A DNA stretch of 46,064 bases from an uncultured Candidatus Peribacteria bacterium (GTDB taxonomy: Bacteria > Patescibacteriota > Gracilibacteria > UBA1369 > 2-02-FULL-48-14): positions 1 through 46,064 of the forward strand of contig CAYHTG010000003.1 of assembly GCA_964359495.1 (NCBI GenBank), read 5' to 3'. A program made the translations under genes and the position numbers. Of this stretch, positions 11,719-46,064 are shown in pieces (the stretch's first letter is position 1; each line of letters opens with the position of its first letter). The notes beneath the pieces were generated by a model. That model ran no database searches and was not told where the DNA came from. It saw only the letters and a program-made list of their open reading frames with translations.

Positions 11719-13668
11719 ATGTATCTACAGCTTCAACAGGAATCTATTCTACTAGGACGCCGACCGGCTGGGTTCACGGAGCACTATTATACCGAGTGGG
11801 ACGATGGTCTTGGTAAAGAGAAAATCTCGCTCTTCCTCTTGATGTCGATTGGGAGCACGCAGGTGCCCGGGGCGGAAATCGGGAAAGAGGCTTTCCAGCT
11901 TTTACAGGATCATTTTTTGGATGATTTAGCTGGAGATCCTTACGATCGATTTGAGAATGCCCTTCGAGAAATCAACACCGTGGTGAGCCAAAAAGAAAAG
12001 GAACTCGACTTGAAATTTATCCCCAATATGAATGTGCTTATTGGAGTGATTCAAAAGGACATGCTTTTTTTGTCGCAACGGGGAGAGGCGCAGGGCTATT
12101 TGGTTCGTAAGCGGCACGTAAGTTCCATTACGGATGGCCTTTATGATGAAAAAAATAAAGAAGACTTGTTCCAAAATATTGCCAGTGGTGTTTTGGAGGT
12201 GGGCGACAGTACGGTTTTGGTTACGGGACCCTTGGTTCAATATGTGACTCCCAACGATCTTTCTAAAATTTTCTCCGAGCAAGCTCTTCGAGAAGCGGCC
12301 AAAGAATTGGAAGATTTGCTCCATAGTGATATTGAAGAGCAGATGAGCCTTGTTGCTTTTGAAGTTTTGGAGAAAACTGAAGAAATTGCGGCTGGAGCAG
12401 TGGCGGGCGTAGAAGTGGAGGGAGAGGAGGGGGAGGCTCCTGCTTACGCAGGAGTGGGCGATGCAGTGGAGAGAGAAAGTCGCTTCGGGAAAGGGCTCGC
12501 GGCGCTTCGTCAATTTGCAGCGCATGAAGACCGCTTTCAATTTTTTGCTAAGATTCGTGGCTGGGAGAAGAGAAAACTGCTTATGTCGATAGGAGCTTTG
12601 GTGCTTGTGCTGGTCGCGGGAGTTTTCATTTTGGAGGTGACGCTCGGCAAACAGCGCACCATTAATGAAATGCAAGAAAAACTCGAAACCGCGGAAAATA
12701 ACATTGCTCTCGCCGAAACCAAAGGTGCTTTCGATAAAGAAGAAGCCAATGTGCTTTTAAATTCGGCTGAAGATTTGGCTGTTGAGGTTATTAGTTCAGG
12801 CTATTTAGGAGGGGACGCCAGTCAAGTTTTAGATCTCATACAAGAACAACGCGATTACTTGGACAACGTTCAACACATCACCGATAATTTGAAACTGGTA
12901 GCCGATCTTAGTGGGAAACTCGCTGGAGCATCTCTCATTGGGGTACAGCCTTATGGCGATAGGATAGTGGCTTTCTCCGATCAAACGGCTTTTCAGATCC
13001 TGATCGATCAAGTGCAAGAGCCCGATACCGTGGACTCCACCGAACGCATTGTGACCGGTCGGTTCTTTGATGAATACGACAATATTATCTTCCTCACTCA
13101 GGCGGCCAAACTTATAGAATATAAGGATGGCAACAGCCAGTTCTCCGATACATCGGATGTGACTTGGCATAATGGCGTGGACGTGGCTACCTACTCGAAT
13201 AAGATCTATGTTCTCGATCCGATCTCAAATCAAATTTGGCGCTATGCACGAGGCACGGAAGCCTATGGGGCCGCTCAAGCTTACTTTTCCGGCGAAGTGG
13301 ATCTATCGAAAGCGATTTCTCTTGCCGTGGATGGGAGCATTTGGGTGCTGAGTAGCGGTGGCACGCTCTCGAAATACTTGAGCGGAGAGCTTGTGGAGTT
13401 TGTAATTAAAAAGGCTCCTTTGGAAGGGATTGTGGGAACGAGTCGTGTTTATACCGAGCTTGAGGTTAATCAAGTCTACCTCCTTGATCCTGCAAAAGAC
13501 CGTCTCTTTGTTTTTGATAAGAACTCGAAAGGCAACGACATCACCTACAACGTTCAGTATATTTTTGATGAGATTGAAGGCACCTTAGTAGACATGTTTG
13601 TCGACAAAGATCGCAACGTGATAGTGATTGCAACTACGAGTGCGGTTTATGAGCTTAGCTTTGAGTAA
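11719..13668 (+). CDS. large hypothetical bitopic protein: N-terminal PP2C-like(?) cytoplasmic domain, one TM helix, C-terminal beta-rich repeat domain
   Basis: 649-aa ORF. N-terminal third loosely PP2C/SpoIIE-like (VLIGVIQKDMLFLSQRGEAQGYLVR...STVLVTGPLVQYVTPNDL). TM helix LLMSIGALVLVLVAGVFILEV. The C-terminal ~250 aa has recurring hydrophobic-strand patterns (IYVLDP..NQIWRY; VYLLDPAKDRLFVF), suggesting a beta-propeller. Confidence 0.6.
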   Translation: MYLQLQQESILLGRRPAGFTEHYYTEWDDGLGKEKISLFLLMSIGSTQVPGAEIGKEAFQLLQDHFLDDLAGDPYDRFENALREINTVVSQKEKELDLKFIPNMNVLIGVIQKDMLFLSQRGEAQGYLVRKRHVSSITDGLYDEKNKEDLFQNIASGVLEVGDSTVLVTGPLVQYVTPNDLSKIFSEQALREAAKELEDLLHSDIEEQMSLVAFEVLEKTEEIAAGAVAGVEVEGEEGEAPAYAGVGDAVERESRFGKGLAALRQFAAHEDRFQFFAKIRGWEKRKLLMSIGALVLVLVAGVFILEVTLGKQRTINEMQEKLETAENNIALAETKGAFDKEEANVLLNSAEDLAVEVISSGYLGGDASQVLDLIQEQRDYLDNVQHITDNLKLVADLSGKLAGASLIGVQPYGDRIVAFSDQTAFQILIDQVQEPDTVDSTERIVTGRFFDEYDNIIFLTQAAKLIEYKDGNSQFSDTSDVTWHNGVDVATYSNKIYVLDPISNQIWRYARGTEAYGAAQAYFSGEVDLSKAISLAVDGSIWVLSSGGTLSKYLSGELVEFVIKKAPLEGIVGTSRVYTELEVNQVYLLDPAKDRLFVFDKNSKGNDITYNVQYIFDEIEGTLVDMFVDKDRNVIVIATTSAVYELSFE

Positions 13669-13921: not shown

Positions 13922-15076
13922 TTAGAATTTCCTAAGATGTCGGGCCATGGCTTTTTCTTCATCGGTGGGGATGACAAAGACCTTTATTTTTGAGCCTTTT
14001 GTTGAAATGCTGACTTTGTTTCGACGGTTTGCGGTGCTGTCTAATTTAAGTCCGAAGGGTTTTAAATAATCGCAAATTTGTTGGCGAAGGTAGAAGGCGT
14101 TTTCTCCGATTCCCGCGGTGAAAACAAGGGCTTTTGGGGGGCCACCGAGGGGAATGAAGTAACTCGCGATGATCTTGGCCATTTGGTAGCTAAAAACGTC
14201 AAAAGTACGGAGGGTGCCGGGGGACTTTGGTTTTGCCCTCAGGCTGCGGACGTCTGAGCCGATTTCGGAAAGACCTTTAAAGCCGGATTCTTTTTCAAGA
14301 AGATGGTGAACGGCCTCGGGGCTTTTCTTTTTGAGAAGGTGGAAAATTATGGCCGGGTCTATGGTGCCTGAGCGAGTGCCCATAAGCGGTCCTTCCAGTG
14401 GGGTGAAACCCATGGAGGTATCGAGGGATTTTCCATTTTTTATGGCGGTGACGCTCACGCCGTTTCCTATGTGACAGGTGATGAGTGCGGTGCCTTTACT
14501 ATGGAGGATTTTTTGGGCTTCTTGAGCCACGTACTGATGACTGGTTCCGTGAAAGCCATAGCGGCGGATATGCTCCTTTTTGTAGAGCTCGTAGGGGAGA
14601 CCGTAGAGGAAAGCGCGAGGAGGAAGGCTGGCGTGAAAAGCCGTGTCAAAAATAGCCGTTTGTTTGGCGTGTGGGATTTGTTTAAGGCAAGCTTTGAGTG
14701 CCGCCAAATTGGCTGGATTGTGTGAGGGGGCAAGATCGGAAAGTTTCTCCAAATCTTTGAGGATGCGCGAAGTGATGAGGGTTGGTTTTATATATTTTTC
14801 ACCGCCATGCACCACGCGGTGCGCGACTTTTTTAATCTCTTGGATCGAGTGAATAGCGCGGTCTTGTTTAAGTCGATTGAGAGCGTAAGTAATGGCTGCT
14901 TTATGATCTTTAATTTTTATACTTGTTTTTTTCTCGCCGGTTTTTAAGTACTGTCGAAAATGACAGTGTTTTTGTCCAATGGCATCCACGTGTCCTTTGT
15001 AGAGGCGTTTCAAGTGCTCATCAAAAAGCGCAAATCGAAGGGAGGAAGAGCCGGCGTTGATTACGAGTATGGCCAT
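13922..15076 (-). CDS. ackA: acetate kinase
   Basis: N-terminal ILVINAGSSSLRFALFD, AHRVVHGG, FDTAFH, RRYGFHGTSH, ITCHIGNGVSV, GTRSGTIDP: the canonical AckA motifs. Confidence 0.93.
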   Translation of the reverse strand: MAILVINAGSSSLRFALFDEHLKRLYKGHVDAIGQKHCHFRQYLKTGEKKTSIKIKDHKAAITYALNRLKQDRAIHSIQEIKKVAHRVVHGGEKYIKPTLITSRILKDLEKLSDLAPSHNPANLAALKACLKQIPHAKQTAIFDTAFHASLPPRAFLYGLPYELYKKEHIRRYGFHGTSHQYVAQEAQKILHSKGTALITCHIGNGVSVTAIKNGKSLDTSMGFTPLEGPLMGTRSGTIDPAIIFHLLKKKSPEAVHHLLEKESGFKGLSEIGSDVRSLRAKPKSPGTLRTFDVFSYQMAKIIASYFIPLGGPPKALVFTAGIGENAFYLRQQICDYLKPFGLKLDSTANRRNKVSISTKGSKIKVFVIPTDEEKAMARHLRKF

Positions 15077-15144
15077 AAAATGGGGGCTGGATGAAATTAC
15101 TAGAATTGTAGCCGATGAGTTGCTAGAGTGAAATCTAAATTTTT

Positions 15145-15525
15145 ATGTCCAACCCCAAAACTTATACGCTTAGACCTACCGATACACATATTGTCCTTGG
15201 CCTTGAAACTGTGCGGACAGAGGGGGAGATTCGTATCAGTCACAACTGTGAGCCCGCTGTAGAAGTTATTTTGCGTTTTTGTCTCCAGCAGGGGAGAGAG
15301 GCAGTTTTGAAAGTTTTAAGTGCAGGAGTAGAAGTAGATTTTCGATACTCGGATGAACATGTGTATGATCCAGGAGGTTCCATTGACCCCACTTTGTTGC
15401 CTCCCTGTGTTGCCGTAAGATTTAATCTTGCACCACCGGCGTGGGTGGAGGTTCAAAGGACCGATGTGAACGGCAGCTCGGATATTCTCGTTGTGGCGGA
15501 TTTTCCTGGGAAGCATCCACGGTAA
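15145..15525 (+). CDS. hypothetical protein (126 aa)
   Basis: ORF of reasonable composition between ackA and the TA cassette. No motif recognised. Confidence 0.45.
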   Translation: MSNPKTYTLRPTDTHIVLGLETVRTEGEIRISHNCEPAVEVILRFCLQQGREAVLKVLSAGVEVDFRYSDEHVYDPGGSIDPTLLPPCVAVRFNLAPPAWVEVQRTDVNGSSDILVVADFPGKHPR

Positions 15526-15533
15526 ATGTTGGG

Positions 15534-15563
15534 TTGACGTGGGCGAAGAAAACGGGGTATAAT
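15534..15563 (+). promoter_or_regulatory. strong sigma70-type promoter candidate upstream of the RHH/PIN cassette
   Basis: TTGACG (15534-15539), 18-nt spacer, consensus TATAAT (15558-15563), 23 nt before the ATG at 15587. Confidence 0.55.
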
Positions 15564-15586
15564 TATGGGGTAGTAAATTTAACACT

Positions 15587-15841
15587 ATGAATACTTCTGT
15601 TTTAGAAAAAAGACGTAGGGAGAAAGTTAATTTCATGTTGGATTCCGGTCTTTTCAAAGAGATTAAAAAGTATGTACCGGATGGGGAGAGAAGCGATTTT
15701 GCAAATGTAGCTTTTCAGGAGGCTTTAATCGATTTTAAAAGAAAAAAGGCTTATGAAGAGTTAAAGAAACTAAGAAAAAAGAATAAAATTTACATTTCAA
15801 CCAAAGAAATTTTAAAAGCACGTGACTATGGAAGAAAATAG
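15587..15841 (+). CDS. ribbon-helix-helix (CopG-like) antitoxin candidate
   Basis: KVNFMLDSGLFKEIKKYVPDGERSDFANVAFQEAL fits a beta-strand/helix/helix RHH pattern. Overlaps the downstream PIN gene by 20 nt. Confidence 0.6.
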   Translation: MNTSVLEKRRREKVNFMLDSGLFKEIKKYVPDGERSDFANVAFQEALIDFKRKKAYEELKKLRKKNKIYISTKEILKARDYGRK

Positions 15842-16268
15842 AAAAATCGTCATTGTTGATGCATCAGTCATTTTGAAGTGGATGCTTCCAGAAAGAGAAG
15901 ACGTGAGGAAGGCTATCCTACTTCAGGAAGACTTTTACTCTAAGAGGCTTAGTTTTTTAGTTCCAGCTCATTTTCATGCTGAACTAGCCAATACTATTGG
16001 ACTAAAACTTCCAATGATTGCGTTCCAATTCATCCATAGAATTCTTGATAGCGAATTCCGACCTTGTCAGTTGAGTTTAGAGGTGGCACGGCTCGCCTTT
16101 AAATTCATGCAAAAATATAAAAGAATAAGCTTTTACGATGCTTTCTACCACGCCTTGGCAATTGATAGGCGAGGGACTTTTGTTACCGCAGATGAGCGAT
16201 ACTATAGAACCGTAAAAAGTGAGGGGCATATTGTTCTTTTAAGGGATTACTCTTATGAAAAAGTCTAG
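15822..16268 (+). CDS. vapC: PIN-domain ribonuclease toxin (VapC-like)
   Basis: IVIVDASVILKW (Asp1), HFHAELANT (Glu), SFYDAFYHALA (Asp), FVTADERYY (Asp): the PIN acidic quartet. Confidence 0.8.
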   Translation: MTMEENRKIVIVDASVILKWMLPEREDVRKAILLQEDFYSKRLSFLVPAHFHAELANTIGLKLPMIAFQFIHRILDSEFRPCQLSLEVARLAFKFMQKYKRISFYDAFYHALAIDRRGTFVTADERYYRTVKSEGHIVLLRDYSYEKV

Positions 16269-16470
16269 TACTCAACGAAACCAAGTCATCTCAAAAAAAG
16301 AATCTGGAATAAAGATAGTTGTAATTACTGGTGATAATTTTGAGGAAGCTTTAATTACTTATAAAAGAAAAATTGCCTTTGAAAATATTGAAAAGTTCCG
16401 TAAGAAAGTGAAACTGCGAATTTCAATGAAGGAGTTTAGAAAGCTTAGGGCTTACGGTCGGCAAGAGTGA
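16255..16470 (+). CDS. degenerate second copy of the antitoxin C-terminal region (orphan)
   Basis: Its C-terminal half (FEEALITYKRKIAFENIEKFRKKVKLRISMKEFRKLRAYGRQE) aligns with that of the 15587 product (FQEALIDFKRKKAYEELKKLRKKNKIYISTKEILKARDYGRK). The N-terminal RHH strand is not conserved. Overlaps the PIN gene by 14 nt and no toxin gene follows. Confidence 0.5.
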   Translation: MKKSSTQRNQVISKKESGIKIVVITGDNFEEALITYKRKIAFENIEKFRKKVKLRISMKEFRKLRAYGRQE

Positions 16471-16531
16471 GTAAAAGTGATTTTCATTCTTAGCGCAGAG
16501 TGTTAGGATTGTGCCAGCCCAACCCACGCCA

Positions 16532-18904
16532 ATGAACAAAACGGACCAAAAAGCACTTGCTTGGATGAAGAAGTATCTTCGTTACACGGATTACATCGGG
16601 GCGGCGCAATTGTACTTGAAGGAAAATTTTGAGTTACGAGAAAAGCTCAGGCCCGAGCATATTAAAGAGCGGATTCTGGGACACTGGGGGACGGTTCCTG
16701 GACTGAATTTTATTTATGCGAATTTGAATTATTTGGTGTGGAAACATAAATGCGAAATGCTTCTTGTGACTGGGCCCGGACACGGGGCGCCCGCTATTTT
16801 GGCGAACTTGTTTGCGGAGAAAACTTTGGGAGATTTCTACCCCGGCTTCGAGCGCGATGGGAAGGGAATGGGGCGCCTCATTCATGATTTTTCTTGGCCG
16901 CATACGGCCTTTCCCAGCCACGTGACGCCGGGTGTTCCCGGGTCTATTTTGGAAGGAGGCGAGCTTGGTTACAGTTTGGCCACCGCGTATGGGGCGGTGA
17001 TGGATAATCCAAACTTAATTGCGGTGGCCGTGGTGGGTGATGGTGAAGCGGAAACCGGCCCTATTGCCGCCGCTTGGCATAGCAACAAGTTTCTGAACCC
17101 GAAGAACTCGGGAGCGGTGCTCCCTATTGTGCATATCAACGGGTATAAAATTTCCAATCCCACTTTGTTCGGGCGTATGGATGACAAGGAACTTCGCTCG
17201 CTGTTTGTGGGTTATGGTTATGAACCGTTTATTATTGAGGCGCCAAATCTTGAAATGAAAATGCTCGTCGCCATGGAAAAGGCTTACCAAATCATTAGGT
17301 CCATTCAAAAGCGATCTCGAAAAAAGGCGGTTTTAAAGCCTAAGTGGCCGGTGATACTGCTACGCTCTCCGAAAGGGTGGAAGGGCATACAGAAATTTCA
17401 TGGTCATAGTGTGGAGGGTTCTTTTCATTCGCATGGAGTTCCCGTGGGTCATCCCAAAGACGACCCCGCAGCTTTGAAGGCCATAGAAAGTTGGCTCAAA
17501 ATTTATAAAGTTCAAGAACTCATCGATTCGAAAGGAAGACCCAAGCCCGAAGTGGTGGAGTTTGTAGTAAACGGAAAACTTCGCATTGGAATGTGTGCGC
17601 ATGCCATTGGCGGGAATTTGGTGAAAAACTTGAAATTTCCATCTTTGGAAAAGTACGCGCTCAAGTTTAAAAAGCATGGAGAAATTCATAGCGGAAGTAC
17701 CCCGGTGGGAGCGAAGTTTTTGCGCGATCTTGTGAGATTGAATCCAAAAAACTTCCGCATTTTTTGTCCGGATGAACTGGAATCCAATTTACTCGGGGCT
17801 ATTTTTGAGGCTACGGGCCGCGACTTTTTGTGGCCCCTCCAAAAAAATGATGAACATATGCAAGTGGGTGGCCGCATTGTTGAAATTCTTTCCGAGCATA
17901 GCTTGCAAGGCTGGATGATGGGTTACACCCTGACGGGCCGTTTTGGATTTTTCCCCAGCTACGAAGCTTTTCTCACCATCATTGCGAGCATGCTTGACCA
18001 ATATGCAAAATTTCTAAAGCAAAGCTTCAAAGTGAAGTGGCGTAGGCCCGTTCCTCCTCTTGTTTATTTGCTCACCAGTGTGGGCTGGAGGCAGGATCAC
18101 AACGGATACTCTCATCAAAATCCAAGTTTTGTCAGCAATATTTTGGAAAAACATGGCGAGTTCTGCCAAATCTACTACCCGCCGGACGCGAATAGCTTTT
18201 TGGTCGCGCTCGAGGAGGTTTATAAAAAACGAAATTATATTTGTGCCATTGTGGCCGGGAAACGCGACGTTCCTCAATGGCTTTCGCTCAAGGAAGCCCG
18301 AGAGCAAGCGAAAAATGGGATTGGTATTTGGGAGTGGGTGGGTGGACGCGAGGGTACAAAAGACCCTGACGTTGTTTTAGCTTCCGCCGGAGACTACATG
18401 ACTCAAGAGGCTCTTCTTGCCGTGAAACTTTGCAAAAAACTGGTACCGGAAATGAAACTTCGCTATGTGAATGTTTCCGAGCTCACCGCGCTGTGTTTGG
18501 GTGATCACGCGGAGCCGGCTCAAACTGCAGCTAGCGCTGCAGTGGAAGAGAAAAAAATGAATCAATATTTCACTAAAGATCGCCCCGTTGTTTTCAACTA
18601 CCATGGTTACACGAATGACATCGAGCAAATTCTTTGGCCCTATGTGAGTTCCAAGCGATTTAGTATTCACGGTTATGAGGAGCATGGTTCCACCACGACG
18701 CCTTTTGACCTCAAAGTGCAGAACAAAGTTGATTTTTATCATCTTGCCATGGACCTCATCACTCAAGCTTCGAAACGCAATAAATCGGTGGCCAAAAAGA
18801 AGGCTCAGCTCTTGAAATTTTTGAATGGAAAAATTGAAGAGCATCAAAAATACATTGTTGAAAATGGTGACGACCCTGCAGAGGTAAAAATACTTAAATG
18901 GTAA
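16532..18904 (+). CDS. xfp: xylulose-5-phosphate/fructose-6-phosphate phosphoketolase
   Basis: RYTDYIGAAQLYL, GHWGTVPGLNFIYANLN, GPGHGAPA, EGGELGYSL, VVGDGEAETGP, HINGYKISNPT, QDHNGYSHQNP: hallmark ThDP-dependent phosphoketolase motifs. The track start is GTG 16511. I prefer ATG 16532 (MNKTDQKAL...), so the start is uncertain. Confidence 0.93.
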   Translation: MNKTDQKALAWMKKYLRYTDYIGAAQLYLKENFELREKLRPEHIKERILGHWGTVPGLNFIYANLNYLVWKHKCEMLLVTGPGHGAPAILANLFAEKTLGDFYPGFERDGKGMGRLIHDFSWPHTAFPSHVTPGVPGSILEGGELGYSLATAYGAVMDNPNLIAVAVVGDGEAETGPIAAAWHSNKFLNPKNSGAVLPIVHINGYKISNPTLFGRMDDKELRSLFVGYGYEPFIIEAPNLEMKMLVAMEKAYQIIRSIQKRSRKKAVLKPKWPVILLRSPKGWKGIQKFHGHSVEGSFHSHGVPVGHPKDDPAALKAIESWLKIYKVQELIDSKGRPKPEVVEFVVNGKLRIGMCAHAIGGNLVKNLKFPSLEKYALKFKKHGEIHSGSTPVGAKFLRDLVRLNPKNFRIFCPDELESNLLGAIFEATGRDFLWPLQKNDEHMQVGGRIVEILSEHSLQGWMMGYTLTGRFGFFPSYEAFLTIIASMLDQYAKFLKQSFKVKWRRPVPPLVYLLTSVGWRQDHNGYSHQNPSFVSNILEKHGEFCQIYYPPDANSFLVALEEVYKKRNYICAIVAGKRDVPQWLSLKEAREQAKNGIGIWEWVGGREGTKDPDVVLASAGDYMTQEALLAVKLCKKLVPEMKLRYVNVSELTALCLGDHAEPAQTAASAAVEEKKMNQYFTKDRPVVFNYHGYTNDIEQILWPYVSSKRFSIHGYEEHGSTTTPFDLKVQNKVDFYHLAMDLITQASKRNKSVAKKKAQLLKFLNGKIEEHQKYIVENGDDPAEVKILKW

Positions 18905-20166
18905 AACATGTTGTCATTTTAGGCGCCGGTGTAGCGGGCCTTGCTTGTACTCAAAAATTATCTGCGCGCGCGCCGGAACAACTGCGCATTACTCTTGTTG
19001 ATGAAAGTGATGTGCATGTACTTAAGGCTGATCTTTATGAAGTGGCTACGGCTTTCAACAAGGAAATCACCGAGGAATGTTTGGTGCGTTTAAAAGCGAC
19101 GGTCGCTACTCCTATTGCCAGCTTGGTGGATCCTGAGCGAGTGCAGTTTATTCAGGACTCAGTGCTTCGAATCGATCCCAAAAAGAAGGTCGTTTACTTA
19201 AAGGGAGGTGCGTCAGCAAAAGGCAAAAAAATCTTTTACGATATTCTTGTTGTCGCTCTGGGGAGCGTGACGAATTTTTTCAATATTCCCGGTATTGAAA
19301 AATCAGCCTACTCTCTCAAAACTGTGCGCGATGGACTTAAATTGAACTGTGCGTTGGACCATTTGTTTTTTGAACTTTACCAAAAAAAATCTCAACGGTC
19401 GGTCCATATTACCGTTGGTGGAGGAGGTTCAACCGGAGTGGAAATTGCTTGCGAGCTTCACACCTCTCTTACAAAGTTGTGTAGGAAATACCATTATCCT
19501 CGTTCGAAAGTCCATGTGCAGCTTATCCAAAATGGAAAAGAACTCGGTGGACTCGACCTCAATGGAAGTGTGCTTATCAAGGAAAGGCTTCAAAAACTTG
19601 GGGTTTGTTTATATTGTGATTATCACATCACAAAAGTTACCCCTGAAAAAGTGGAAATTTTGGATGCTCAGAAGGTAAGAAAAACGCTTCCGAGTGAGTT
19701 GCTTATTTGGACCGCCGGGGTTCGAGTTAATCCTCTGCTCGAAAATTTAGCCGATTCAAAGTCACAAGGAGCAATCCGCGTGAATAGCAGCCTTCAATCG
19801 GTTGGGCATGACCGCATTTTTGCTGCGGGTGATAATGCTTACCTTAGCAATCCGCGCCACAGCGGCTCGCGATTCCCAATGCTCGCCAGTGTTGCCAAGT
19901 TGCAAGGAGCTTTGGTGGCTGAAAACATCATTAGAATCATTAAGTCTCGACCCTTGCTTTCGTTTAAGCCGGGCTTTGAGTGGCTTTTACTTCCTCTCGG
20001 TGGAAAATTTGGTCTCTTCAAAGCGGGCCCCGTCCTTTTTACGGGATTTTTTGCTTGGCTCATTCGACGCTTTGTTATTTTGCGTTACCACCTTTCCATC
20101 CTTCCTTTTTTTAGGGCACTTCGAAAATGGCGGCTTTCGGAAAAGTTGTTTGTAAAGAATGACTAA
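18898..20166 (+). CDS. NAD(P)/FAD-dependent oxidoreductase, type II NADH dehydrogenase-like
   Basis: Two Rossmann dinucleotide motifs (VVILGAGVAGLA; ITVGGGGSTGVE), a GD motif (IFAAGDNA) and a C-terminal amphipathic/hydrophobic tail. Its start overlaps the xfp stop (ATGGTAA). Confidence 0.8.
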   Translation: MVKHVVILGAGVAGLACTQKLSARAPEQLRITLVDESDVHVLKADLYEVATAFNKEITEECLVRLKATVATPIASLVDPERVQFIQDSVLRIDPKKKVVYLKGGASAKGKKIFYDILVVALGSVTNFFNIPGIEKSAYSLKTVRDGLKLNCALDHLFFELYQKKSQRSVHITVGGGGSTGVEIACELHTSLTKLCRKYHYPRSKVHVQLIQNGKELGGLDLNGSVLIKERLQKLGVCLYCDYHITKVTPEKVEILDAQKVRKTLPSELLIWTAGVRVNPLLENLADSKSQGAIRVNSSLQSVGHDRIFAAGDNAYLSNPRHSGSRFPMLASVAKLQGALVAENIIRIIKSRPLLSFKPGFEWLLLPLGGKFGLFKAGPVLFTGFFAWLIRRFVILRYHLSILPFFRALRKWRLSEKLFVKND

Positions 20167-21107
20167 GAACGAAAATTTAGGTTTTGGGCTTCAATGGAAG
20201 TGATGGCTGCCAAATTCACAATATCTTCCACCGTGCAGCCTCGGGATATTTCGTTCACGGGTTTTTTCAGGCCTTGTAAAATAGGTCCAATGGCTTTGGC
20301 ACCAGCTAGGCGTTCAACAAGTTTATACCCGATATTTCCCGACTCCAAATCAGGAAAAATGAGCACATTGGCGTGTCCGGCCACAGGGGAGCCGGGGTCT
20401 TTGAGTGCCCCAATTTGGTCCATGAGCGCGGCATCCACTTGCATTTCTCCCTCCACAATAAGGTCGGGACGGCGTGATTTTACAAGAGCTGCGGCTTCGC
20501 GAACTTTTTTTGCAAGTGGATGGTCGGAAGAGCCTGCCGTTGAAAAAGAAAGCATTGCAATTACCGGTTCCACTCCAAAACGCTTTGCTGTTTCGGCGCT
20601 ATCAATGGCAATATCGGCCAGAGTTTTTACGTCGGGTTCCACGTTAACGGCGCAATCGGCAAAGAGTAAAACTCCTCCATTCGCGGCATCGCTATCCACA
20701 TCCGCCGGTAAAATCATAAAAAGGAAGCCCGAAACTTTATGGAATTTTTCTTTTGTTTTAATGATTTCGAGCGCCGGCAAAATACGCTCGCGGGAAGTGG
20801 CCATGGGGCCGGCAATCATTCCATCCGCCAAGCCTTCTTGCACCATCATCGTTGCGAAGTAATGTGGATTTTGCATTTTGCTTCGAGCTTCCGCTTCGCT
20901 TGCCCCTCGAAGTGCCATAAACTTTTGCACAAAATCTTCAAAATGAGGATCTTTTACAGGATCCTCAAAAGTCAGGGGCAGCGCTAAACCTTCGTACTCT
21001 ATGATTTGAATCGCCTCGAGCACTCGAGCCTCGCTTCCTTCCGCAAAAACAAGCCGCGCCGGATTTTTCTTGGCTCGGTCCTTAATTTGGGCGAGGAAAT
21101 TTTCCAT
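20163..21107 (-). CDS. pta: phosphate acetyltransferase (short PTA_PTB type)
   Basis: ARLVFAEGSEARVLEA, HYFATMMV, ADGMIAG, SFSTAGS, ANVLIFPDLESGNIGYK, GPILQGL..PVNEISRG: canonical Pta motifs. Confidence 0.9.
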   Translation of the reverse strand: MENFLAQIKDRAKKNPARLVFAEGSEARVLEAIQIIEYEGLALPLTFEDPVKDPHFEDFVQKFMALRGASEAEARSKMQNPHYFATMMVQEGLADGMIAGPMATSRERILPALEIIKTKEKFHKVSGFLFMILPADVDSDAANGGVLLFADCAVNVEPDVKTLADIAIDSAETAKRFGVEPVIAMLSFSTAGSSDHPLAKKVREAAALVKSRRPDLIVEGEMQVDAALMDQIGALKDPGSPVAGHANVLIFPDLESGNIGYKLVERLAGAKAIGPILQGLKKPVNEISRGCTVEDIVNLAAITSIEAQNLNFRS

Positions 21108-26021: not shown

Positions 26022-28700
26022 ATGAAAAAGCTTATCTCCTTACTCAGCCTGCCAATGCTGTTGGCGGTGCTACTTCCACAAGTGGCATTTGCCTATTCGG
26101 GTGTGAACCTGGCGAATGATGGGGTGGATGCTTACTATTACTGTAACAGTCTGTTCTGTCTCGCTATGAATGATACCACCGACGCAAAAGATGCCGGTAC
26201 GAATGATGTGAGCGTTCCTACGGATCTCAGCGATGCAATGTACTTTGGCTACCCTCAAATGTTTGAGGGTTTTGCCATTGACATTTATACTTCAGTGAGT
26301 GGTTACAGTTCTCTTGATCTTGGAATGGGAGAAGAAGGAAGATACGATATTGAATATTGGAATGGCTCTTCTTGGACTGAACTGGATGTAGAGGGGAATG
26401 AGAATACACTTGGTTACACGGATTATAACATTGAAGACGATTCTACAACAGGGGTCTTTGCTCTAACTTGGCAACGTCCTACCGACTGGGTGAAGTCAAC
26501 GGTTGGCAGTTCCTTTTCCATGTACTACGTACGAATGCATATTGTCGAAGAGTATTCCAGCGCCACTACCGCCACTGCTTCGCAAGTTGGAATTATTGAC
26601 TATAATTTGAAGCTTGAGGTGCTCGATGAGTTGGGTTATGCCATTGAAGGATTGGAGGAAGGGGATTTTACTCTGAGTGAAACTTCGGGTGGGGATGAGA
26701 CCATTTATTCTTTTGAAGAGCTTGGGGATGGACTCTATGGTTTTGCTGTCGACCCCTCTGCAGGCTCTGAGTACGAGCTTTCCATTGAGCCTTCCGGTTT
26801 TGTTGGAGAAGATCGCCAAGTAAGCCTGGATTTCGGCGAAACTCTCTATGATGATTTCGATATGGGATATAGCCATCTTTTGATGGCAGAGAATACAATA
26901 GGAACGGAAGTGGTCATTGAAGAGGCGACCGCCGGAGCGCCTCCGGTGGATTGTATTATTGACGGCGCAGAGGCCTACTGTGCGGTGGATATTGGTAATG
27001 ATGGTAGTGGAGCAGAGGCTTATGTGTATACGGATGGTTATGTAGCACTAACAGGGTCTATCACCAACCGAAACGCAGGGAACCTGTCTCAGGCTCAAGA
27101 AACCTATGTCTTACGCTATGGGTACATTGCAACTGTAAAAAATACGACTGGCAATTTGCTTTCTACGGCTACGGTAAAAGCCGGGGACGACCTGGATCTT
27201 ACGTGCGACTATATAGGTAGCGGCCAATACGGTTGCCCTATTTCTCTTTCTGATAGTGAGCCTTTGGTACAAATTTCTGCCACAGGTTATGACACTTCGG
27301 ACAGTGTGTTTAGTGGTGAACGTACGAGTGCAAGCTCCTCACAAGTGACCACTACCTTCCATTTGGAAGAAAGTGCCACGGAAGAACCGGATCCAACCGA
27401 TGATGGAACGGATACCGACGGAGAGGGTCTTACCGATGTAGAAGAAGCTGCCTTGGGAACGGATGAAACCGATGTAGATTCCGATAACGATGGCTTGGAG
27501 GATGACGAAGAGGTGGATCTGGGGACTGATCCTATGGATTCCGATTCCGATAGTGATGGAATTGATGATGGCGAAGAGGTAGATCTAGGAACTGACCCTA
27601 CCGATTCCGATACGGACAATGATGGGGAGAGCGATGGAGATGAAGTGGACGCCGGCACGGATCCTTTGGCAGACGAAGACGAAGTGATTGAAGAGGACAG
27701 TGACGGAGATGGATTGGATGATGATGATGAGGCTGACTTGGGAACGGATGAAACCGATGTGGATTCCGATAACGATGGTTTGGAGGATGGTGAAGAGGTA
27801 GACCTGGGGACTGATCCTATGGATTCCGATTCCGATAGTGATGGAATTGATGATGGCGAAGAGGTAGATCTAGGAACTGACCCTACCGATTCCGATACGG
27901 ACAATGATGGGGAGAGCGATGGAGATGAAGTGGACGCCGGCACGGATCCTTTGGCAGACGAAGACGAAGTGATTGAAGAGGACAGTGACGGAGATGGATT
28001 GGATGATGATGATGAGGCTGACTTGGGAACGGATGAAAACGATGTCGATACTGATGACGATGGAATTAGTGACGGGGCGGAAGTGGCTACCGATACCGAT
28101 CCACTCGACGAAGAAAATTTCCTGGCGGATGCCGAGGATTATGATGCCGATTGCAGTGACACTTTCACTGATACGGCTGGAAACTTTGCAGAAATTTCTA
28201 TTTGTATTTTGTACGATAATGACATTGTGAATGGAGCAACGGCAACTACTTATGAACCCAGTCGTGCTATCACTCGTGCTGAATTCTTAAAGATTGCTCT
28301 ACTCAATGCGGGGCTTACCGTCGTGGCTGATAGTGACGTGGACTATGATGATGTGGAATCCAGCGATTGGTACTACTCTTACATCACTTATGCTACCTCT
28401 GAAGGTTATGTGGAAGGGTATACAGATGGAATGTTCCATCCCAATGAAGAAATCAACCGTGCGGAGGCTATGATCATGATGATGCGCATCGCCGGTGTGG
28501 ATGATTACGATGTGGACGACAGTGATATCGATTTCAGTGATGTGGAATCCAGCGATTGGTACGCTTGGGCAATTGTGGAGGCCGATGAAAACGGTATCTC
28601 CGAAGGCTATAGCGATGGCACCTTTAAACCTGGCAACGACATCACTCGTGCGGAAGTTGCGGTGATCGCTCGCCGAACTTGGTATGTCTACTTTGAATAA
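26022..28700 (+). CDS. large secreted surface (S-layer-like) protein: N-terminal beta-rich region, thrombospondin type-3-like Ca-binding repeats, three C-terminal SLH domains
   Basis: Signal peptide [24 protein letters not shown]. Many D-x-D-x-D-G-x-x-D repeats ([36 protein letters not shown]). SLH motifs ([10 protein letters not shown]...[11 protein letters not shown]; [42 protein letters not shown]; [42 protein letters not shown]). Confidence 0.85.
27453..28022 (+). repeat. two near-identical tandem copies of a 285-bp (95-codon) unit inside the surface-protein gene
   Basis: CTTGGGAACGGATGAAACCGATGT... recurs at 27453, 27738 and (diverging after about 25 nt) 28023. The last ~225 nt of copies 1 and 2 look identical by eye, and the first ~60 nt carry a few substitutions (DDEE vs DGEE). 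Confidence 0.9.
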
Positions 28701-29969: not shown

Positions 29970-30967
29970 TTACTGTTCGTTTATTTCTTCTGGTTTCAGT
30001 TGGCTGAGTCGATTAAAAGTCATGTGAAAAATTCCGCTCGTTCGCTCGGCACCTTCTTGGTCCAGATCCAGCCTTCCTTTCGCACGTCCAATTTCAATTC
30101 CATGTGGAACAAACTCCATACCAACCACATGGACTCCTTCACGCGGTCTTCCATACATGGCTGTGGTTCCGTGGTCACCTTTAAGCGGTCCTTCGCCATC
30201 TTCCACCTTATAGCCACGGTCTTCAAAATTGCTGCGAATAACTTCAAGGACCCGAGGTGCCGCCGCCAGACCGCCGTTGGAAATCATAATCAGGTCGGGA
30301 AGGCCGGTTCTTTCTTTTAAAGAGCCGCGTGCCATCTCTTCGCCCAAAACATAAGCGCCCGCGTACCTTCCTGTGTTCAATCTTCCCGGTCGATTTAATG
30401 GGAAAGTGTGAAGACTTAAAACAATGGCTGCTCCAAAACGATTTCGGGCTTGGTTGATGGCCGCAGCGAGTGCTCTTTGGTAGGGTTCTTGAACATGAGC
30501 CCGAATTTCAGCGAATTCTTCCCGAGTGTAGGGCCTGCTTAGAATATCCTCCATTTGCGCTTCCGCCGCTCTTGAACCTCTTCAGAGGAAGCGTTTAAAT
30601 TAATTCCTGTGGCTACCGTGCCCCTCCAAATCAAGCCATGTGCATGAGCGCCTTCGGGTGACCCTTCCACGGACAGCGCATCGACTTCTTCAGATGCACG
30701 ATTCAAATCCAAAAGTACTCGCGGAAAGGTGGTCCACACGCGAGCATCGTGAACTCTTTCGTGAAAACCTGTAATGAAAGGAACGGCATGATCAACCCCA
30801 AGGTTCAGTGTTCTTTGAACGGCTTCGCTCTTGAATCGGACAACTTCCAGGATGGCTTCAGGATAATGGTCAAAATCCTTCGGGTGAGGGATGGCGCTAT
30901 GAGGCATGTCCAGGATCAAGGGACTTTCTCCGGGTTCAAAGTTCACGAAAGGGAAGCGCTGATGCAT
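29970..30967 (-). pseudogene. N-formylglutamate amidohydrolase-family (FGase, PF05013-like) gene split into two overlapping ORFs by a frameshift
   Basis: The upstream ORF (30967-30539) carries LILDMPHSAIP and PRVLLDLNR. The downstream ORF (30554-29970) carries PYQRAL..., IVLSLHTF and VVGMEFVPHGIEIGR. Together they make one FGase-like domain. The ORFs overlap by 16 nt in different frames (AAATGGAGGATATTCTAAGC). Confidence 0.65.
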
Positions 30968-42668: not shown

Positions 42669-43064
42669 TTAACGGGTTTTCGTTTTTTTATAAAGTCGAA
42701 GCAGTTGTTTGTCGAAAGTGAGGAGAGTCGCTTTGTAATCTTTGGCTAAACATAAGAGGGAAGCGTCAGTGAAAGAGATTCTACTTGGAATATGTTTAAA
42801 AAATTCAATTTCTCTTTGGACATGGTTATCTACGATATGAATGTTATTTACCGACTGCACATCTTCTAAGAAAGTTTGAGCTAAAGGTTTATCTACTCGA
42901 TAAGTAAGTATCGTGCTCACTTCTTGAATCACGCAGTAAGGGATGATCATTTCACTTCCCCCTATACTTTCAAATAAGAGAAAAGCTGCTTCTTTGGAAG
43001 AGTCATTCTTAATGTAAAGAGCGAGCAAAATACTACTATCAAGGATGTATCTATTTTGCTCCAT
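42669..43064 (-). CDS. vapC: PIN-domain ribonuclease toxin (VapC-like)
   Basis: YILDSSILLAL (Asp), VIQEVSTIL (Glu), ISFTDASLLCLA (Asp), LLTFDKQL (Asp). Confidence 0.8.
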   Translation of the reverse strand: MEQNRYILDSSILLALYIKNDSSKEAAFLLFESIGGSEMIIPYCVIQEVSTILTYRVDKPLAQTFLEDVQSVNNIHIVDNHVQREIEFFKHIPSRISFTDASLLCLAKDYKATLLTFDKQLLRLYKKTKTR

Positions 43065-43212
43065 ATAGGATTTGATCTACTCGGCTGGAAATGTTTACTT
43101 TTCTACTGCTTCCCGCTTTCTTCGCATGTTTACTTGCAAGTTCAGCAAGAGTAGGACCTTTATGGTCCTTTCTCACTCGAATCGTGTATTTTTCCAAGAA
43201 TTTAGTATTCAT
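43051..43212 (-). CDS. putative antitoxin (53 aa, absent from the ORF track), translationally coupled to the PIN gene
   Basis: Hand translation: MNTKFLEKYTIRVRKDHKGPTLAELASKHAKKAGSSRKVNISSRVDQILYGAK. Its stop TAG (43051-43053) lies 14 nt inside the PIN ORF. Size and position fit a VapB-type partner, but the fold is not identified. Confidence 0.5.
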   Translation of the reverse strand: MNTKFLEKYTIRVRKDHKGPTLAELASKHAKKAGSSRKVNISSRVDQILYGAK

Positions 43213-43324: not shown

Positions 43325-46064
43325 CTACACTTCGTTATGCGTGGTAGCCGGCTTGAGTTTCTTGCCTTCAAAAATGGCAATGAAATCTTCGCGGCTAAGG
43401 GTCTCTTTCTCGATGAGAGTTTTGGCAATGCGGTCAAGTTCCTTCTTATGTTTGGTGAGGGTTTCTTTAGCGAGTTTGTGGGCATTGTTCACAAAACCTT
43501 CCACTTCTTTGTCGATTTGCGCGGCTTTTTCTTCGGAGTAGTTTTTGGTGTGGCCGTAATCCCGGCCCAGGAAGACTTCATGGCTCTTTTCACCGAAAAC
43601 GGTGGGTCCCATCAGGTTGCTCATTCCGTATTCCGTCACCATGCGGCGGGCCATGCCGGACGCGCGTTCAAGGTCATTCGAAGGACCGGTGGAAACTTGG
43701 CCGTAGATCATTTCTTCCGCTACGTAACCGCCGAGTAGGGAAGCCATTTCATGTTCGAATTTTTCGCGAGTCACGAGGTGTTTGTCTTCATCGGGCACAA
43801 ACCAAGTGGAGCCCAGGGACATTCCACGCGAGATGATGGTGATTTTTCGCAGGGGATCGCATTCGGGGAGAAGATAGCCCACAATGGCATGACCGGTTTC
43901 ATGGTAAGCGGTGACCTCTTTTTCTTTTTTCGAAAGCACATGTGATTTACGTTCGGGTCCCATTTGAACTTTTTCCACGGACATTTCAATGTCGTGCTGC
44001 TTGATTTCTTTTTGGTTCATTTTAGCGGCCAAAATGGCGGCTTCGTTCATGAGGTTTTCCAAGTCGGCTCCGGAGAAGCCCGGCGTTTGTTTGGCGATTT
44101 GCCCCAGGTCTACATTTTTGGCAAGCGGCTTATTCTTGGCATGCACTTTCAGGATTTGCTCGCGGTCGTCAATACTGGGGCTGTCCACCACCACGCGACG
44201 GTCGAAACGACCGGGACGAAGCAGGGCGGGGTCCAGAACATCAGGGCGATTAGTATTGTGTAGCAAGAGAGGAGTTTGTCCTCCAAAAAAAGCTTCTTCT
44301 TGGCAACCACAAAAGTCATAGACATAATCGTTGTATGCTTTCTTTACAATTTTGCTGATTTTGAGGCGTTTAACGGTGGGAGTCGGACGATCAGGATTGA
44401 GCGGATTTTGACTCTTCCCAAAACCCAGTCGCCATGCTTTTGTTTCAGGTAAAGGATTCCCTCCGGCAATTCTTCTACCGGCGGGTACAATCCAGCTCCA
44501 TAGGTTTGATTTATAGCCCTGCATGCGTGACAGCCAGTTTAGTTCAAGGAGTAATTGGTAACTGACCGACGTGAGTTCAATGCGGCCTCGTTTGTCTTCG
44601 TGTCCATCTCCGTAAAAATATCCGCGAAAAAATTCAATAAAGTATTCTTGAGGTGCTTCAAACAGGAAGTTTGGAAGATGTTTTTGGTGGGCTCCCTTTC
44701 CACATTGCCGGATAAAAAATTCCGCAAGAGGTTTGCAGTGGTAAACGAGATTCACGGCATGAGGAGTTTGGTGACGAATTTCATCCGGCTCCAAGCCGAA
44801 AATAGTTTGCATGAGCGTTTTCACTTCTTCTATGTAAAATGTTTCTTTTTCGTTAAAGCAAAAATCCACTTCTTTTCGAGCGTAGCCCTCTGCCGTATAG
44901 TAGCCGAGTAGTCGACACAAATCGGGGCTGACTTGTACTTCTTCAGGGAGTGAGTGTTTAAAGTAAGCTCGAGAAGCTATGCGAGGTCGTCGATCCGTGT
45001 TTTGCCATTTTGATACCGTCGTTTGAGTAACTCCAACCAGAACGCCCACTTCTTTCTGACTTAATACGTCTTGATGGGCACGCACAAAATGATATTGGGC
45101 TTCTTCCCATAAATGTTCATTATAAACGGGCAGTATACGCTGGAATTTTTGACTAAATTGGTGAGCCCGGACTTCTCGTTTAGCGGAAGTTCGATTGGCG
45201 ATGTAAGGGACTTCCACTAGATATTCGCCGATTTTGAGCTTATCCACACGTTTGGCTTGCAGTCCTTGTTGGTTACGAATAAATACCGAATGGTTGCCTG
45301 TTGTGCGAAGCAAGCCTCCTTTGTGATGGATTTCATAAATTTCGTCGACTTTATGCCGGAATACACTGCGGACTTTTTTAAAAGCACTGCCTCCAAAGAA
45401 AACTTTGGTTCGCTTTTTTGTTTTTTTACGATACTTGGGCTGAAGACCGAGAACTTCAAGGTCGGGGCATAATTTTTCCATATTTTCCTCTCCTTCTTCA
45501 TAGTATGCATCAATGACTTCGGCAATTGGTTTCAATGCGTGGGTCCCATTTTCACGAACGAGCACCGGAGTATCTCCCGTGACGCTTGCTGCCATCACAA
45601 TCACATTTGTATTGGTTTCAAAACCGTCCATTTCGGTGAGGATTTGGTTCAGGGTCTGTTCCCTTTCGTCATGTCCTCCGCCGAGTCCCGTTCCTCGTTG
45701 GCGGCCCACGGCATCAATTTCATCAATGAAGACAATGCAGGGTGCATTGCGTTTGGCTTTTTTAAAGAGATCACGCACACGGCTGGCTCCCACTCCCACA
45801 AACATTTCCACAAACTCCGATCCGCTAATAGAGAAAAAGGGAACATTCGCTTCGCCGGCCACCGCGCGAGCGAGCAGCGTTTTTCCCGTGCCCGGGGCTC
45901 CCACGAGCATCACTCCTTTGGGAATTTTGGCGCCCATCGCCGTATACTTGGTGGGATTTTTCAAGAAATCTACAATCTCCACGAGTTCTTCTTTAGCTTC
46001 TTTCACACCGGCCACATCCGCAAAGGTCGTGCGTTCCTTCTCTTTGTCGTGCAAGCGGGCTGTC
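43325..46064 (-). CDS. ftsH: ATP-dependent zinc metalloprotease FtsH, 5'-truncated by the window edge and interrupted in-frame by an intein
   Basis: Walker [19 protein letters not shown], Walker [15 protein letters not shown] region [19 protein letters not shown], and the protease motif HETGHAIVG (HEXXH). The ORF is open to position 46064 (the track's M at 46054 is an internal TTG/Leu). Confidence 0.93.
44255..45586 (-). mobile_element. intein (444 aa) with a LAGLIDADG-type homing endonuclease domain, inserted at the FtsH sensor-1 motif
   Basis: Junctions are ...VIVMAA|[10 protein letters not shown]... and ...[10 protein letters not shown]|TNRPD.... Block B RTTGNH (TxxH). LAGLIDADG-like [10 protein letters not shown] and [10 protein letters not shown]. 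Terminal HN followed by a +1 Thr. Excision restores the canonical AATNRPD. Confidence 0.88.

Follow-up and report, generated by a model that had tools for sequence, protein, structure and literature searches.

An intein with a LAGLIDADG homing endonuclease very probably interrupts the sensor-1 motif of FtsH in an uncultured Candidatus Peribacteria bacterium

The gene for the protease FtsH in an uncultured Candidatus Peribacteria bacterium very probably carries, in frame, a class-1 intein with a double-motif LAGLIDADG homing endonuclease (HEN), placed between the last Ala of strand β-4 and the Thr-Asn of the sensor-1 motif. The 444-residue element lies at 44255-45586 on the minus strand of the DNA stretch analyzed here (contig CAYHTG010000003.1, assembly GCA_964359495.1, positions 1 to 46,064; hereafter the window), and is supported by profile matches, an AlphaFold2 (AF2) model and Foldseek comparisons. 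Nothing was found that contradicts its identity as an intein. The element is genuine but ordinary, a mobile element of textbook type for which no new biology is needed.

The initial annotation of this DNA had reported 444 extra residues at this interval and left the strand unstated. Translation of the minus strand, on which the gene lies, confirms the coordinates exactly: the interval holds 444 in-frame sense codons and no stops (SVTGDTPV...LLHN), from the Ser1 codon AGC at 45584-45586 to the Asn444 codon at 44255-44257. A plus-strand reading of the interval was rejected, its translation being full of stops. The insert forms part of a single open frame of 912 uninterrupted codons (43325-46063, minus strand) that continues past the right edge of the window, and the ftsH gene is therefore placed at 43325-46064 with its stop codon at 43325-43327 and its 5′ end beyond the window. 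Since the frame exits at the right end, the N-terminal membrane part of FtsH is outside the window and not missing from the gene; the homologous locus L081 (P and L numbers are handles of this analysis) carries this transmembrane/periplasmic region. All motifs quoted in the annotation are present in their places in the minus-strand translation, with block A at intein residues 1-10, RTTGNH at 94-99, a helix-turn-helix (HTH)-like motif at 184-196, LAGLIDADG-like motifs at 226-235 and 319-328, VYDF at 422-425 and LLHN at 441-444. This agreement is far beyond chance.

The host protein is FtsH by several measures. The precursor matches the NCBIfam FtsH equivalog TIGR01241 at 746.8 bits (cut-off 600) in two stretches that flank the insert, and contains the Pfam domains AAA, AAA_lid_3 and Peptidase_M41, with the AAA match ending at residue 160, at the junction. 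The partial N-extein (45587-46064) comprises the AAA+ module up to strand β-4, including Walker A (GAPGTGKT, 45878-45901) and Walker B (IVFIDEID, 45713-45736), and ends in NVIVMAA. The C-extein (43325-44254), delimited by Pfam and structure alignment, resumes with TNRPD, in which Thr+1 is encoded by ACT (44252-44254). It begins with the sensor-1/second region of homology (44198-44254), followed by the AAA lid and the M41 protease with its zinc site HETGH (43889-43903). Both Walker motifs, the HEXXH motif of M41 and the second region of homology are intact, and the 444 residues interrupt an otherwise intact FtsH sequence. Without them the product has 468 residues, and its alignment to FtsH of Thermotoga maritima (2CE7, E 5e-173) runs across the junction with no gap, as do those to the FtsH structures of Escherichia coli, Thermus and Aquifex. 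The earlier claim that deletion of the insert recreates AATNRPD is upheld by the 2CE7 alignment and by the intein-free relatives described below. We take the Asn of ATNRPD to be the sensor-1 residue known from classical AAA proteins (N301 in E. coli FtsH); the insertion point is thus where strand β-4 ends, one residue before sensor-1. A second FtsH was not found within the 46-kb window.

The splicing domain is recognized by Pfam Intein_splicing (PF14890, 42.6 bits, gathering 35.8) and NCBIfam intein_Nterm (TIGR01445, 28.0 bits, cut-off 24.5), with partial matches to the NCBIfam models of intein-containing archaeal Tes, RpoA'', PolII and RNR. A phmmer search of the PDB with the intein retrieved PI-PkoII (3e-15) and the Methanocaldococcus jannaschii TFIIB mini-intein. 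Conservation was assessed in an alignment of 14 homologous inteins with 26-54% identity and in a separate alignment of 12 sequences. Block A (45557-45586), which holds the Ser1 nucleophile, has S1, T3, G4, T6 and P7 invariant across the 14 inteins. In block B (45278-45313), with its TxxH motif T96-G-N-H99, H99 and S100 are invariant in the larger alignment and T96 in the 12-sequence alignment. The C-terminal splicing lobe (44255-44326), which combines block F (Asp424) with block G (PLLLHN, His443-Asn444), has V422, Y423, D424, F433, H443 and N444 invariant, and Thr+1 is present in every FtsH copy seen at the AA↓TNRPD site (the arrow marks the insertion point). With Ser1, TxxH, the block F Asp, the His-Asn end and Thr+1, the insert has the make-up of a canonical class-1 intein. 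A Cys-Gly-Cys motif was also observed two residues past the block F Asp (intein residues 426-428, window 44303-44311, minus strand); it occurs in all aligned copies except the PriS intein (P0046) and P0047, and two copies at another FtsH site, GVGA↓S, keep the first Cys only.

The nuclease domain matches Pfam LAGLIDADG_3 (PF14528) at 36.5 bits (gathering 22.5) over residues 318-365, and PI-PkoII aligns to residues 217-350. Motif 1 (44879-44920, LLGYYTAEG), assigned from the PI-PkoII alignment, contains the catalytic acidic residue E233, and motif 2 (44600-44641), within the PF14528 match, contains D325. Both acidic residues are retained in all FtsH-hosted homologs, as is GDG, and some distant homologs lack the acidic residues; the glycines G228, G234, G322 and G326 are invariant across the 14 inteins. 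An HTH-like module (44999-45061) separates the N-terminal splicing lobe from the endonuclease. It matches Pfam HTH_23 and HTH_3 weakly and below cut-off (E about 0.01), and residues ~159-195 form three helices in the AF2 model, with a predicted local distance difference test score (pLDDT) of only 58-76. The pattern GVSQxT(V/I)xxWQ is kept in the inteins of both the AA↓TNRPD and the GVGA↓S sites of FtsH and is absent in the fungal Yme1, PriS and P0047 relatives. The module may have an accessory DNA-binding role.

The AF2 model of the intein, built on the 14-intein alignment, has a mean pLDDT of 86.9 and a predicted TM-score (pTM) of 0.85. Its best Foldseek matches in the PDB are all HEN-containing inteins, namely TliVMA (7QSU/7QSS, 3.9e-22), PI-PkoII (2CW7, 1.1e-20), PhoVMA (7QST), PI-PfuI (1DQ3) and PI-SceI (1VDE). 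The Hint lobes also match mini-inteins, and the nuclease part, which has the α-β-β-α-β-β-α fold of LAGLIDADG enzymes, matches I-DmoI and WhiA. The solved HEN-inteins share with the present model the two-lobed Hint fold with an inserted double LAGLIDADG nuclease (Foldseek E 4e-22 to 4e-11, TM-scores of at most 0.74), whereas their sequence identity to it is just 10-18%, their hosts are V-ATPase, DNA polymerase and ribonucleotide reductase rather than FtsH, and the accessory parts with which they bind DNA are unlike the HTH-like module. The initial annotation had proposed a full-size LAGLIDADG intein with Ser1 and Thr+1 at FtsH sensor-1, and had suggested a check against Hint/intein and LAGLIDADG profiles. 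That check gave scores above cut-off for PF14890, PF14528 and TIGR01445, and the profiles, the conserved catalytic residues and the structure model all agree with the proposal.

What does the same site look like in other genomes? The spliced extein was searched against one genome per GTDB species, which gave 593 relatives, and the best 80 of these were examined. All 80 have a contiguous (M/I/L/V)AATNRPD without an intein. The nearest are a Candidatus Gracilibacteria sequence (79% extein identity) and metagenome-assembled genomes (MAGs) of Patescibacteria, Peribacteria and Peregrinibacteria (64-74%), and the ten closest loci (L001-L010, 64-79%) are all intein-free. A search for intein-minus alleles in related MAGs, as had been suggested, thus found the closest relatives empty at the same codon. 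Judged by extein similarity, these relatives place the window in the Gracilibacteria/Peribacteria/Peregrinibacteria part of the candidate phyla radiation (CPR). The reconstructed empty site of the ftsH gene in the window, 60 bp in length, reads ACCAATACAAATGTGATTGTGATGGCAGCA up to the insertion point and ACTAATCGCCCTGATGTTCTGGACCCCGCC after it.

Occupied alleles are found further afield. A search with the intein of 5.8 billion proteins returned 66 clusters, mostly Patescibacteria FtsH fragments with the same junctions, AA↓SVTG(D/E)TP...LLHN↓TNRPD. When 1.84 billion representatives were searched exhaustively and without a profile, 45 matches fell below 1e-30 and 625 below 1e-10. The notion that this is a potentially new insertion site was therefore overstated, as the same codon is occupied in dozens of public protein clusters, mostly from Patescibacteria, and in independent assemblies from NCBI, ENA, JGI and Logan. 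Full-length precursors interrupted at this codon include P0070 (1065 aa) and L081 (GCA_049322615.1; an intact open reading frame (ORF) of 1068 aa), and P0094 carries a nuclease-less mini-intein of 181 residues there. The Patescibacteria FtsH inteins at this codon (P0070, L081/P0005, P0001, P0003, P0004, P0006) share with that of the window the host, the site, the Hint, HTH-like and LAGLIDADG parts and the Ser1/Thr+1 pair; they are 50-54% identical to it over their full length and form one clade with it. They differ in residing in other CPR lineages, and the C-exteins of the intein-bearing hosts are 46-63% identical to that of the window, which makes these hosts more remote from it than the empty relatives are. 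Alleles of full size thus exist alongside mini, empty and possibly decaying ones, as a homing cycle predicts. Many close analogs have apparently been deposited already, poorly annotated and unpublished, and public records often misname these genes “AAA family ATPase, partial” or “LAGLIDADG family homing endonuclease.” At L081 (5038-8244), for example, the called gene starts within the intein despite the intact ORF and bears the latter name at NCBI, and at another related locus, L082 (6001-9229), the gene model is split in two by a frameshift in the intein.

Standard class-1 chemistry, applied to the conserved residues, suggests how FtsH would be restored. The whole precursor (about 1,060 residues if complete) would be translated first. 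Ser1 would undergo an N-O acyl shift aided by Thr96 and His99, and the resulting ester would be attacked by the Thr+1 hydroxyl in a transesterification that yields a branched intermediate. Cyclization of Asn444, aided by His443 and Asp424, would release the intein, and an O-N shift would leave a normal Ala-Thr peptide bond, restoring ...MAATNRPD... and active FtsH. The unspliced precursor would be inactive as an ATPase because β-4 and sensor-1 are separated. The free intein would in turn cut empty ftsH at the conserved sequence GCN-GCN↓ACN-AAY-CGN-CC by means of its nuclease domain, probably together with the HTH-like module, and repair of the cut allele would copy the intein in. Such homing would explain the sporadic distribution of the element.

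Some points weigh against this interpretation. Splicing and nuclease activity are read from conserved residues only, and an experiment on any member of the intein lineage was not found in the literature searched. The nearest intein homolog is 53% identical over its full length (66% over a partial length), and no recent homing is documented; the nearest DNA homolog encodes a protein of ~51-53% identity, with synonymous sites saturated. The G+C content at third codon positions (GC3) is 0.38 in the intein, 0.54-0.58 in its own exteins and 0.50 ± 0.06 in the other genes of the window, which puts the intein about two standard deviations under the latter; this contrast speaks for the interpretation, yet could come in part from strong conservation of the exteins. 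Finally, the frameshift inside the intein of L082 may reflect either decay or assembly error, and not every copy is necessarily functional. The same frameshift would suit the possibility that the intein of the window is itself decaying or splicing-dead and that its ftsH is a pseudogene or a non-functional paralog, the cell relying on another FtsH, for which there could be room outside the 46-kb window. We consider this very unlikely: the frame runs through 912 codons without interruption, both Walker motifs, HEXXH and the second region of homology are preserved intact, all catalytic splicing residues and both LAGLIDADG acidic residues are retained, and the window holds no further FtsH.

It is slightly less improbable, though still unlikely, that the intein is more than a selfish element and is kept as a conditional splicing switch, with FtsH held inactive until a signal arrives, for instance a temperature, a redox state or a substrate. 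Its sensor-1 position means that the precursor must be ATPase-dead, the Cys-Gly-Cys after the block F Asp is present in all but two aligned copies, and the same argument has been published for other ATPase inteins in the main text of a 2016 survey (Novikova et al., PMC4760082). However, the closest relatives do well without an intein, HEN-containing, mini and empty alleles coexist in the way a selfish homing cycle predicts, and the nucleophiles are Ser and Thr rather than redox-sensitive Cys. That the insert is an ordinary lineage-specific insertion domain of FtsH, or an assembly chimera, has nothing to commend it except that FtsH does not figure among the classical intein hosts. Against it, both the Hint and the LAGLIDADG profiles exceed their cut-offs, solved inteins match the model with E of about 1e-22, the Ser, His-Asn and Thr at the termini are exactly in place and conserved, and the in-frame insertion recurs at one codon in the independent assemblies named above. 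By sequence and model alike this reading is already refuted, and its probability is negligible.

The intein belongs to a wider family, recognizable by its SVTGDTP...LLHN ends. The same lineage occupies a second FtsH site, GVGA↓SRVRDLF (P0014, P0019, P0020, P0073-P0079), and is present in fungal mitochondrial Yme1 of Kickxellomycotina, in Dipsacomyces (P0038) and Coemansia (P0041), at GVGA↓SKVRSLF; an unnamed Yme1-like protein (P0084) has the same GVGA↓S junction and an intein of the same lineage. The GVGA↓S(R/K)VR inteins are 33-42% identical to that of the window and have the same blocks, and the bacterial copies share the HTH-like module. They differ in their site, which is between Walker A and Walker B, and in a +1 residue of Ser. 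In the fungal copies examined, P0041 and P0084, the LAGLIDADG motifs are degenerate, and P0041 also lacks the HTH. A third FtsH site, in the P-loop (GK↓T), holds a Cys1 intein of another type, which brings the sites occupied by inteins in FtsH to at least three (GK↓T, GVGA↓S and AA↓TN). Some FtsH proteins contain two inteins (P0067, P0068, P0069 and P0072, at most 1499 aa) in combinations drawn from the GK↓T, GVGA↓S and sensor-1 sites. Mini-inteins of 181-216 residues without a nuclease occur at the sensor-1 and GVGA↓S sites (P0094, P0093, P0098, P0101, P0102). The nuclear-encoded inteins of Yme1, the mitochondrial i-AAA protease, hint at transfer between bacteria and eukaryotes.

Beyond FtsH and Yme1, the lineage is found at the sensor-1 site of CDC48 (P0071) and other AAA+ proteins (P0036, P0037, P0082, P0083), as well as in the archaeal RFC small subunit (RFC-S), the primase PriS and a secretion ATPase. 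The sensor-1 inteins of CDC48/VCP and other AAA+ proteins (P0071, P0024, P0034, P0042; P0036, P0037, P0082, P0083) occupy the homologous AAA+ position, xxA↓TN(R/I)P, and the P0071 intein is 48% identical to that of the window over 431 residues; the difference is one of host, these being the D1 domain of CDC48 or uncharacterized AAA+ proteins. The archaeal RFC-S inteins, inserted at LELNA↓SDERG, belong to the lineage only distantly, with 24-29% identity. In the main text of the 2016 survey, archaeal LonB and RFC-S inteins are likewise located in AAA+ modules, including that of an ATP-dependent protease, but in a different host, site and domain of life (Novikova et al., PMC4760082). A viral or phage carrier of a close relative was sought by scanning IMG/VR with the intein alignment and was set aside, as the scan gave distant inteins only (24-32% identity).

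A neighbor-joining tree groups these inteins by insertion site, with the intein of the window in the FtsH sensor-1 clade and the GVGA↓S clade as its sister. It is possible, though we would not favor it over its opposite, that they form an undescribed lineage specialized for AAA+ modules, often with an accessory HTH, which passed from one paralogous host to another, and from one domain of life to another, by recognition of the near-invariant sensor-1 or GVGA-SRVR DNA, some FtsH proteins accumulating two inteins. The hosts in question are FtsH of the CPR, at two of its sites, CDC48 of the archaeal type, the mitochondrial Yme1 of fungi and other AAA+ proteins. As a more speculative part of the same proposal, the Cys-Gly-Cys by block F might make splicing conditional.

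Full-text literature searches yielded no description of a bacterial FtsH intein, within a scope that, for PMC4760082 and PMC10710043, was the main text. In its main text, the 2016 survey, which deals with prokaryotic inteins, names LonB and RFC-S as hosts but not FtsH (Novikova et al., PMC4760082), and that of a study of Anaeramoeba mentions CDC48 inteins with prokaryotic counterparts at orthologous sites (PMC10710043). In the intein literature searched, the only FtsH-type host is a chloroplast “FtsH-like” protein of Pleodorina starrii, in the supplement of a survey of eukaryotic inteins (Green et al., 2018, PMC5784728). As here, a HEN is present. However, the P. starrii intein begins with Cys1, ends in WTGN, is a near copy of the chloroplast RNA polymerase intein of the same alga and, by eye, has none of the block sequences of the present intein, and its host is a COG0464 chloroplast protein. 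In the MIJ3 phage paper, an FtsH-like protein and a PolB intein are separate features.

A tblastn search of the window with the present intein matched only the intein itself, and none of the ten longest ORFs, among them SecA, FtsK and phosphoketolase, has a Hint or HEN domain. The nearest relative is labeled “Gracilibacteria,” which suggested genetic code 25, but this code was rejected. The 24 listed ORFs end in TAA (19), TAG (3) or TGA (2), and this use of TGA as a stop indicates the standard code. Directly downstream of ftsH is a PIN-domain gene (42669-43064, minus strand; PF01850, 52 bits) with a G+C content of 0.356 and a GC3 of 0.33, and a 53-aa ORF (43051-43212, minus strand) overlaps its start. 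Together (42669-43212) they look like a VapBC-type toxin-antitoxin cassette that is compositionally foreign, as is the intein. A homolog of FGase (N-formylglutamate amidohydrolase, PF05013; 29970-30967, minus strand) is split by a frameshift into two overlapping ORFs (30539-30967 and 29970-30554), through either pseudogenization or assembly error. On the plus strand, 26022-28700 encodes an 892-aa protein with bacterial TSP3 repeats and three C-terminal S-layer-homology domains, probably a cell-surface or S-layer protein, and 11719-13668 is a 649-aa ORF without a Pfam family at E ≤ 1e-5. A fermentative module at 13922-21107 contains acetate kinase (13922-15076), phosphoketolase XFP (16511-18904), a pyridine-nucleotide disulfide oxidoreductase (18898-20166) and phosphotransacetylase (20163-21107).

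With at least three sites occupied in public data, FtsH deserves an entry in the catalog of intein hosts. Annotation pipelines split such genes into a “partial AAA ATPase” and a “LAGLIDADG endonuclease,” and a reduced CPR genome can consequently seem to lack FtsH. The Ser1/Thr+1 intein described here, whose junctions are free of cysteine and whose host is a mesophilic bacterium, and its compact Ser1 mini relatives (181 aa) could serve protein engineering. A lineage common to FtsH, CDC48 and fungal Yme1 also offers a tidy case for jumps of homing endonucleases between paralogous targets. The main value added here is an intein lineage that targets AAA+ modules, in a host with at least three occupied sites, and the annotation problem that results.

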